NCBI GenBank assembly: GCA_050288705.1
Contig: JBNKEI010000093.1
Location: 1,460-65,459 of the forward strand
Direction of reading: 5' to 3'
Length of the DNA stretch: 64,000 nucleotides
Source of the DNA: Myxococcales bacterium
GTDB lineage: Bacteria; Myxococcota; Myxococcia; Myxococcales; UBA5297
Part shown: positions 27,520 through 27,759 of the stretch, piece after piece
Layout: every line of letters begins with the position of its first letter
Position numbering within the stretch: position 1 is the stretch's first letter
The notes under the pieces: model-generated
Told to the model about the DNA's origin: nothing
Databases searched by the model: none
What the model saw: the letters and a program-made list of their open reading frames with translations, nothing else
Position numbers and translations under genes: made by a program

Positions 27520-27691
27520 CCTGCTCCACGTCCCGACAAAAACTACAAAAATGAAACACTTTTTCGTTTCTGCAATGCAGAAGCGAAAAGCGACCAGCCA
27601 ACTTGCCAATGGCGCAATTCACAAATGTAGTAATTTCCATAGATTACCATTAACCAGCAAGCAGGCACGCACCTTGCTATAGAATCATAAC

Positions 27692-27759
27692 GAAGCGTGA
27701 CGTACCTGAGAAGCTGGTCCCCCCCCCACCACTTCGGTGGACGTCGCGCTTCTTTTTTT
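27692..27759 (+). ncRNA. Candidate C-tract small RNA, or alternatively an elaborate rho-independent terminator
   Basis: A 12-bp stem pairs 27692-27703 with 27741-27752 (one G-U) and is followed by T7 (27753-27759). It encloses an unpaired GGT-C9 tract (27716-27727) and the inner hairpin CCACC/GGTGG. TTGCTATAGAAT at 27674-27685 ends 7 nt upstream. Confidence 0.35.

Follow-up and report, generated by a model that had tools for sequence, protein, structure and literature searches.

A putative sigma-54-dependent small RNA of the Pxr family and a separate C-loop RNA divergent from tilS in an uncultured member of the Myxococcota

The DNA analysed here, referred to as the window, is a stretch of 64,000 nt from contig JBNKEI010000093.1 (assembly GCA_050288705.1) of a Myxococcales bacterium, the host being a metagenome-assembled Myxococcota genome with 46% GC. 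At two places in the window, designated locus A (27692-27759, plus strand) and locus B (45315-45469, minus strand), a run of C is presented in a hairpin loop. Locus A raises the question of what such an element does in the gap between two convergent genes: is it a small-RNA gene in its own right, the terminator of the operon that precedes it, or one of two copies of a C-rich small RNA (sRNA)? We consider it probable that locus A is a small-RNA gene of the Pxr family, which gives a trans-acting RNA of about 68 nt from a sigma-54 promoter. Pxr is a small RNA that controls the development of fruiting bodies in Myxococcus; it was reportedly described in 2010 by Yu, Yuan and Velicer and is found in Myxococcus xanthus as well as other Cystobacterineae. 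Judged from its sequence, locus A is a shortened relative of this known RNA.

Structure and conservation of RNA A

The predicted RNA and its parts are as follows.
27692 to 27759, plus strand: small RNA A, about 68 nt (fold, covariance model R1 and covariation)
27692-27706 with 27739-27752, plus strand: outer stem (fold and covariation)
27710-27718 with 27728-27735, plus strand: inner stem (fold and covariation)
27719 to 27727, plus strand: C9 apical loop, the predicted seed for G-rich targets (family invariance and Pxr alignment)
27753-27759, plus strand: U7 tail, directly after the 3' arm of the outer stem

A preliminary description of this DNA had recognized much of this core. Its 12-bp clamp with one G-U pair, formed by GAAGCGTGACGT (27692-27703) and ACGTCGCGCTTC (27741-27752), was confirmed in position, as was the T7 directly 3' of ACGTCGCGCTTC. 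The GGTC9 stretch at 27716-27727 had been described as exposed; this applies to the nine C residues, whereas the GGU is paired. Both the minimum-energy fold and family covariation pair GAAG.UGGU (27710-27718) with ACCACUUC (27728-27735), and the loop therefore consists of the C9 run only. A CCACC-acttc-GGTGG mini-hairpin, also proposed, is absent from the minimum-energy fold, is not conserved and receives no support from family covariation. The extent of 27674-27759 covers the core, but the unit is larger and also includes an inverted repeat (27562-27588) and a second hairpin (27765-27820). These features exceed chance: runs of seven or more C occur on either strand of the 64-kb window only at loci A and B, and the fold of the RNA A hairpin (-32.3 kcal/mol, z = -5.3) was not equalled by any of 200 shuffles.

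A pattern scan over one genome per species (GGTCCCCCCC-N15-45-CTTCTTTTTT) returned 41 loci, 21 of which (23 copies) carry the whole architecture of locus A; their hosts are Myxococcales, Anaeromyxobacter and 'delta proteobacterium' genomes. Covariance model R1 detected the window copy with 78.5 bits (E = 2e-20) and added three copies not picked by the pattern, one in the cultured Anaeromyxobacter dehalogenans (CP001359.1, ~506.0 kb; 87.5 bits) and two that are second copies in tandem (L011:6901-6968 and L029:1580-1644; L numbers denote related loci). At least 27 copies of the A family are present in Myxococcota. The consensus of a 24-sequence alignment comprises a 14-bp outer stem, an 8-bp inner stem, an apical loop of C7-C10 and a U-tail. 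Compensatory changes occur in 10 of the 22 pairs, 95.4% of the cells are paired, and the covariation score is 0.347, compared with 0.198 for column shuffles (none of 500 reached it) and at most 0.134 for slid partners. The transcribed strand follows from conserved U-G pairs, such as pair 30-41, which is U-G in 20 of 21 sequences. Family-wide, the apical run and its GGU/RCC closure are invariant and the stems covary, a pattern that a plain terminator would not be expected to show.

This bears on the reading of locus A as a mere elaborate intrinsic terminator, possibly bidirectional, of the KamA/GNAT/KamA operon. The element lies 172 nt 3' of the stop codon at 27519, between this operon (KamA-like, GNAT, KamA-like) and the convergent ribF, and its strong hairpin with U7 would also stop read-through from upstream. 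However, the same hairpin, equipped with a promoter and enhancer motif of its own, is found at more than 25 loci behind unrelated genes, as well as in tandem arrays of two or three copies, and relatives of this KamA gene have another gene order and no such element. We regard the reading, which the preliminary description had kept as an 'ornate terminator of abl operon', as extremely improbable. Its other proposal, that A is a small-RNA gene in its own right whose ends are clamped, whose C-run is exposed and which has an intrinsic terminator, is supported as a prediction by family conservation and by a promoter motif of its own.

Rfam gave no match above threshold in a gathering-score scan of the window, in permissive scans of both loci, in 19 related loci or in the M. 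xanthus region; a weak match to narK (18.8 bits) was dismissed, as it only reflects the GGCAC...TTGCU of the promoter. The route through homologs of the KamA-like gene led to no A-type element: the nearest are at most 66% identical and have a different gene order and higher GC. A Logan contig at this gene is 100% identical to the window and hence uninformative for conservation.

Tandem arrays of A-type genes were seen on the minus strands of L013 (2117-2733, three copies), L011 (6901-7595, two copies) and L029 (1580-2250, two copies), each gene with its own sigma-54 promoter. The second copies in L011 and L029 have a degenerate U-tail (GCTTCGCTTTCT) and continue into the second hairpin.

Predicted promoter and enhancer, and probable kinship with Pxr

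Upstream of RNA A, two elements were assigned.
27663 to 27678, plus strand: predicted sigma-54 promoter aGGCACgcaccTTGCt, with GG at 27664-27665 and GC at 27676-27677, the family-wide GG-N10-GC
27562 to 27588, unstranded: enhancer-like inverted repeat TTTCGTTTCTGCA-A-TGCAGAAGCGAAA (13-1-13), a shared family motif

The preliminary description had placed TTGCTATAGAAT correctly at 27674-27685 and read it as an extended -10 box. Its TTGC is better read as the -12 element of a sigma-54 promoter. The window has GGCAC-N5-TTGC at 27664-27677, with aGGCACgcaccTTGCt ending 14 nt before GAAG, and GG-N10-GC precedes the hairpin-opening GAAG by 27-31 nt in all 26 A-family members examined, the promoter consensus being tGGCAc-N5-TTGCt. 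The AT-rich stretch after TTGC varies among members (TTGCTAATAGAAC, TTGCTTAAGTAG and others), as expected for a sigma-54 melting region. Transcription of RNA A is predicted to start at about 27688-27692.

The inverted repeat lies about 75-100 bp upstream of the -24 element. Within the window, TTTCNNNNCTGCAATGCAG is confined to 27562-27588, counting both strands, with 0 occurrences expected by chance, and the repeat carries the family motif TTTC-N4-CTGCAATGCAG. The motif TTTC(A)-N3-4-(C)TGCAAT(GCAG), often doubled, stands about 100-170 nt upstream of most other A-family members, and among all fetched loci it was found at A-family loci only. Such a motif together with a -24/-12 promoter is how enhancers of NtrC-type activators are usually arranged, and the repeat is predicted to be bound by an activator of sigma-54 promoters, of the PxrR/Nla19 type. 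The repeat was also considered as the terminator of the kamA-like gene, which is disfavoured by the sharing of the motif across the A family.

The pxr gene has a predicted sigma-54 promoter and an enhancer region, adjoins an NADH dehydrogenase gene and lies downstream of the two-component system Nla19/PxrR; its RNA has three stem-loops, and tandem paralogs exist in Cystobacter (PMC5684412, PMC5568312). Mutation of the stem-loop 1 loop abolished the function of Pxr without affecting the RNA level (PMC5684412), and the literature views Pxr as a trans-acting pairing RNA (PMC11928866). We rebuilt Pxr from the published probe and primers, from about position 13 onwards (AGGCUGAAGGUGGUUCCCCCCACCCCUUCAGCACUUCCGGU...GCCGCCUUCUUUU; PMC5568312, PMC5684412). 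The rebuilt segment AGGCUGAAGGUGGUUCCCCCCACCCCUUCAGCACUUCC aligns with the A-family apex GAAG[C/G]UGGU-Cn-ACC[A/C]CUUC, the C7-C10 run falling on the C-rich loop of stem-loop 1. Stem-loop 1 (positions ~17-41) aligns with the apex of the window copy, GAAGCUGGU-C9-ACCACUUC, with a score that none of 2000 shuffles of A reached, and it fits the Anaeromyxobacter-type apex better (UGAAGUAGGU-C8-GCCACUUCAGC, outer stem GAAGUGC/GCACUUC).

Gene order points in the same direction. The GAAGUGC subgroup, about half of the A family, stands directly downstream of a response-regulator/sigma-54-activator gene. A GAF histidine kinase gene precedes the activator gene in L013 and L065, and convergent genes for NADH:quinone oxidoreductase subunits follow the RNA in L035 and L065; the order of kinase, activator, RNA and NADH dehydrogenase seen across L035, L013 and L065 is the published synteny of pxr. 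The activator search yielded Anaeromyxobacter-type proteins only among its best 120 matches. We conclude that the A family is probably the Pxr lineage or a sister of it and that the stem-loop 1 module, lengthened by a middle stem, doubles as the terminator in this family.

Anaeromyxobacter-type loci have a small response-regulator gene that begins, in the same orientation, ~25 nt beyond the U-tail, so that read-through or coupling is possible there, and A could accordingly be imagined as a cis-acting leader or attenuator of a downstream gene. In the window, however, the plus strand encodes nothing downstream of RNA A, where the next gene is the convergent ribF, and the orphan subgroup described below is flanked by unrelated genes; a leader function of A is hardly credible. 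The small response-regulator gene (M..FLIVDADRNFREALA...) was noted at 5756-6097 of L065 and also in L014, L022, L025, L028 and L032.

The window copy belongs to this GAAGCGC 'orphan' subgroup, together with L036, L037, L043, L038, L039, L050, L024, L011 and L029. Copies of the subgroup have no adjacent activator gene and can occur several times per genome, as in L024, L039 and L043, three contigs of one metagenome-assembled genome that each carry copies. One further feature was assigned from the alignment of orphan copies and the fold of the window.
27765 to 27820, plus strand: second conserved hairpin, GGGCCCGGACGUC ... GGCGUCCGGCGCUC

This second hairpin after the U-run, GAGCCCGGGCGC...GCGCCCGGNGCUC, is common to nine orphan copies. 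In the window it has been retained through one window-specific compensatory change from G-C to A-U and is also predicted by folding; in the high-GC orphan members it is not followed by a U-run. The hairpin may correspond to stem-loop 3, on which the accumulation of Pxr depends, or may belong to a long form made by read-through.

Taken together, these features suggest the following course of events for RNA A. An activator of the PxrR/Nla19 type would bind the inverted repeat at 27562-27588 and drive sigma-54 polymerase to open the -24/-12 promoter; since the predicted promoter is of this type, A would need such an enhancer-binding activator. Transcription would start about 12 nt downstream of the promoter, and the RNA of ~68 nt would end at U7, with the 3' arm and U7 as the intrinsic terminator. 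The transcript would form one long bipartite hairpin, in which the clamped 5' and 3' ends protect it. By homology with stem-loop 1 of Pxr, the C9 loop would pair with G-rich stretches of target mRNAs, which we infer because mutations in the Pxr loop have an effect and because the loop is invariant. Pairing of a C-rich loop with G-rich targets, as in RsaE/RoxS, is a reasonable working analogy.

Several points weigh against the assignment of locus A as a sigma-54-dependent, trans-acting RNA of the Pxr family. An extended -10 box is also compatible with TGcTATAGA, and A might conceivably be transcribed by sigma-70 polymerase; the 64-kb window contains no gene for an activator with a GAFTGA motif. 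The seed pattern fixes GGTC7 and CTTCTTTTTT (the U-tail context), and these two parts owe some of their invariance to it; it placed no demand on the stems, the promoter or the enhancer motif. The Pxr side of the comparison is a sequence rebuilt from primers and probe, lacking the first ~12 nt, rather than a genomic pxr locus, and A lacks stem-loop 2 and the terminal stem-loop 3 of the Pxr architecture. A scan for C-loop duplexes over 65 start regions in the window gave no enrichment: a GGAG-like box precedes only 12 of the 65 starts, and the best plausible site, G5 upstream of prkA (-18.2 kcal/mol), lies within the background. Finally, the transcription of RNA A, its dependence on sigma-54 and an activator, its start site, its 3' end and its pairing mechanism are all predictions.

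The RNA could also be real while its C-loop is a site for binding or titrating a protein, poly(C)-binding of the KH type or other, as in decoys such as CsrB or 6S. The invariance of the loop across large phylogenetic distances and the lack of convincing targets in the window scan would suit a decoy, as would the facts that M. xanthus has no Hfq and that the targets of Pxr have stayed unresolved after 15 years (PMC5684412, PMC11928866). We regard this explanation as unlikely, given that there is one binding motif per RNA, compared with many in known decoys, that Pxr has been published as a trans-acting pairing RNA (PMC11928866), and that no candidate protein was identified.

As for the surroundings of locus A, the operon upstream (23799-27519, plus strand) comprises genes for a KamA-like radical SAM protein (552 aa), a GNAT acetyltransferase (295 aa) and a KamA-family protein (386 aa). 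The closest KamA homologs do not have this order but HTH_17-KamA-GNAT. The gene adjoining pxr in M. xanthus, pxrA, also encodes a GNAT acetyltransferase, and the resemblance to the window operon is probably coincidence. On the other side of locus A, prkA, a DUF444 (yeaH-like) gene and a spoVR-like gene form an operon at 29840-34653 (plus strand), and GGGGG precedes the prkA start. Between convergent genes, at 34777-34821, stands a symmetric hairpin, AAAGGGGGAAA...UUUCCCCCUUU, that has U-runs on both strands and looks like a bidirectional terminator; R1 matches it weakly on both strands (19.1 and 13.2 bits). Copies of TTGSTATAGAAT with one mismatch are found at 22740-22751 (plus strand) and 61529-61540 (minus strand), as TTGGTAGAGAAT and TTGGTATAGATT, respectively.

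The RNA divergent from tilS

At locus B, the following features were assigned.
45458 to 45469, minus strand: promoter of RNA B, extended -10 tTGgTATAGAAT, conserved in the ortholog L051
45389 to 45451, minus strand: variable 5' domain, which diverges from L051 by substitutions and a 7-nt indel
45315 to 45388, minus strand: conserved 3' domain, hairpin plus terminator (13-locus alignment, model R2)
45386-45351, minus strand: 12-bp hairpin with loop UCCCCCCCUCCC, near-invariant in the family
45321-45315, minus strand: U7 of the terminator, after the terminator hairpin

The modules reported earlier for the minus strand, TTGGTATAGAAT (45469-45458), GGTCCCCCCCTCCCCC and GCTTCTTTTTTT (45326-45315), are all present, and the view of B as a C-loop small RNA with an extended -10-type promoter holds. 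High-GC relatives have a TATGAT/TATAAT box 70-125 nt upstream of the hairpin, several of them with TTGCYG 16-17 nt further upstream, and tTGgTATAGAAT of the window fits this family box as an extended -10. No GG-N10-GC of a sigma-54 promoter is present at B. The 5' domain is unalignable across the B family.

Conservation of the 3' domain can be followed over a wide range. FtsH of the host is 98% identical to that of a JGI contig (L051), 81% to those of 'Myxococcales bacterium' metagenome-assembled genomes (71% GC) and 68% to that of Myxococcus. The C-loop hairpin and terminator of L051 are identical to those of window B, and L052 and L053 (71% GC) share the identical hairpin, with covariation in the terminator stem. 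Nine more loci came from a metagenome scan with the 5' half of the B hairpin. M. xanthus DK1622 has a copy at 4219-4296 of L064 (minus strand; about CP000113.1 5,367,555-5,367,632), with two base changes that preserve pairing. Across 13 loci with 46-73% GC, the 37-nt hairpin with its loop UC7-8UCCC is invariant or shows G-U/G-C swaps only, and seven pairs of the terminator have compensatory changes. Window B conforms to the family consensus, GUUGGGCCCAGGGGU-C7-8-UCCCCCUCUGGGYYCACGG followed by the covarying terminator. Model R2 gave 90.3 bits for window B and 71.6 bits for the independently found M. xanthus copy.

The gene neighbourhood is likewise constant. RNA B is divergent from tilS, usually in the arrangement tilS-ftsH, wherever the contig is long enough: tblastn placed TilS beside RNA B in 10 of 12 loci, the contigs of the other two being too short, and L064 of M. 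xanthus has the same arrangement. TilS itself is only 32-52% identical among these loci, except for the near-identical L051 contig (90%). Rfam gave no match for RNA B, the M. xanthus copy included, and a search of the accessible literature found no paper on a tilS-linked myxobacterial small RNA. The RNA B family appears to be undescribed; it is separate from the A family and has a sigma-70-type promoter. Its loop contains CCUCC, resembling an anti-Shine-Dalgarno sequence, and given this loop the blocking of Shine-Dalgarno sequences is somewhat more attractive for B than for A.

This separation contradicts the preliminary description, which had joined A and B in one family. If the two loci were paralogs of one sigma-70-driven C-rich sRNA family of the RsaE/RoxS type, their common TTG[CG]TATAGAAT, GGTC7+ and GCTTCTTTTTTT, the C-run in a hairpin loop at both and the fit of TGnTATAGA to an extended -10 at both would be explained. 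We hold this to be very unlikely. R1 scores B with 17.9 bits via the terminator only, and R2 does not detect A. The relatives of A all have GG-N10-GC and most of them the enhancer motif, with a variable stretch after TTGC, whereas those of B have TATGAT/TATAAT boxes and another, fixed gene neighbourhood, and neither locus matches any Rfam family, RsaE included. Because the promoter of A is read as a sigma-54 promoter with an enhancer, the shared TTG[CG]TATAGAAT looks like a coincidence between two promoter classes. A fourth shared stretch, after the terminators (GACGTyTT..TCTTCTTT), was also set aside: in A it falls inside the second hairpin, covering part of the 5' arm and loop, and in L051 it is replaced by an insertion of ~150 nt.

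This insertion (L051, about 360-515, minus strand) stands right after the U-run of B, compared with the window, and has inverted repeats within it (CCACCAAGCGCCCGTTGG...). Possibly a small mobile element, it delimits RNA B on the 3' side. In L064 (about 4175-4215, minus strand), L055, L058 and L060, a GC-rich hairpin, GCGCCCCGG...CCGGGGCG, with a U-run follows the B-type terminator and recalls the second hairpin behind orphan A-type copies.

Significance and comparison with known systems

We tentatively propose, as a possibility that at present falls short of an even chance, that there are two deeply conserved myxobacterial families of C-loop sRNAs with a common target language: a signal-inducible, sigma-54-dependent 'mini-Pxr', distributed much more widely than the fruiting Cystobacterineae to which pxr has been assigned, and a sigma-70-dependent RNA divergent from tilS-ftsH. 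No small RNA of a multicellular bacterium is better known than Pxr, which has been thought a recent invention tied to fruiting-body formation. Short Pxr-like RNAs with an invariant C-loop occur in the non-fruiting Anaeromyxobacter and in an uncultured low-GC lineage, often as several unlinked copies with one enhancer motif. If the proposal is true, Pxr would have arisen as a lineage-specific elaboration of a regulator that is older and has nothing to do with multicellularity, and the tilS-linked RNA would represent a new housekeeping riboregulator of the whole phylum. The breadth of the A family questions the recent origin of Pxr, supplies phylogenetic depth for comparative target prediction and directs mutagenesis to the loop. 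As the tilS-linked RNA occurs in M. xanthus DK1622 but not in Rfam, it is a new gene that can be tested at once in a model organism.

The closest known system is Pxr. The A family resembles it in a predicted sigma-54 promoter, an upstream enhancer region and a Myxococcota host. It also resembles stem-loop 1 in the outer stem GAAGUGC/GCACUUC, the inner stem UGAAG/CUUCA and the GGU-C-run loop. Tandem paralogs (three in L013, two each in L011 and L029), as in Cystobacter, and, in Anaeromyxobacter-type members, the kinase/activator/RNA/NADH dehydrogenase synteny are further likenesses. In contrast, RNA A is about 68 nt rather than 108 nt long, its C-loop hairpin has an extra middle stem and a U-tail directly after it, and its second hairpin stands after the U-run, not before. 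The host of the window copy, moreover, is uncultured and has 46% GC. The window copy is not beside the two-component system that reportedly adjoins pxr in every species examined: its neighbours are a KamA-like gene and ribF, with no kinase/PxrR or NADH dehydrogenase gene.

Membership of RsaE/RoxS, the group with which the preliminary description had drawn an analogy, was not upheld: there is no match to an Rfam covariance model, and the nearest characterised relative is Pxr. RsaE (RF01820) gave no match at gathering score in the window and none up to E = 10 around either locus. Locus A shares with this Firmicutes group a C-rich loop motif, an intrinsic terminator and the proposed pairing of a C-run with G-rich sequences. 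Unlike RsaE/RoxS, which have at least two unpaired C-rich motifs, A has a single C9 loop, and B likewise has one loop (C7-U-C3). A further differs in its sigma-54 rather than sigma-A promoter and its phylum, and the window scan gave no support for Shine-Dalgarno targeting by A.

With respect to regulation, other sigma-54-dependent sRNAs are Qrr1-4 with LuxO in Vibrio, GlmY with GlrR in enterobacteria and CrcZ with CbrB in Pseudomonas. They differ from A in having no sequence or structure similarity to it, other seeds and other phyla, and to our knowledge the dependence of these systems on Hfq or Crc is absent in myxobacteria. Their likeness to A lies in the -24/-12 promoter and in an NtrC-type activator acting on upstream inverted repeats; the Qrr RNAs, moreover, are multiple dispersed copies under one activator, to which the A family can be likened.

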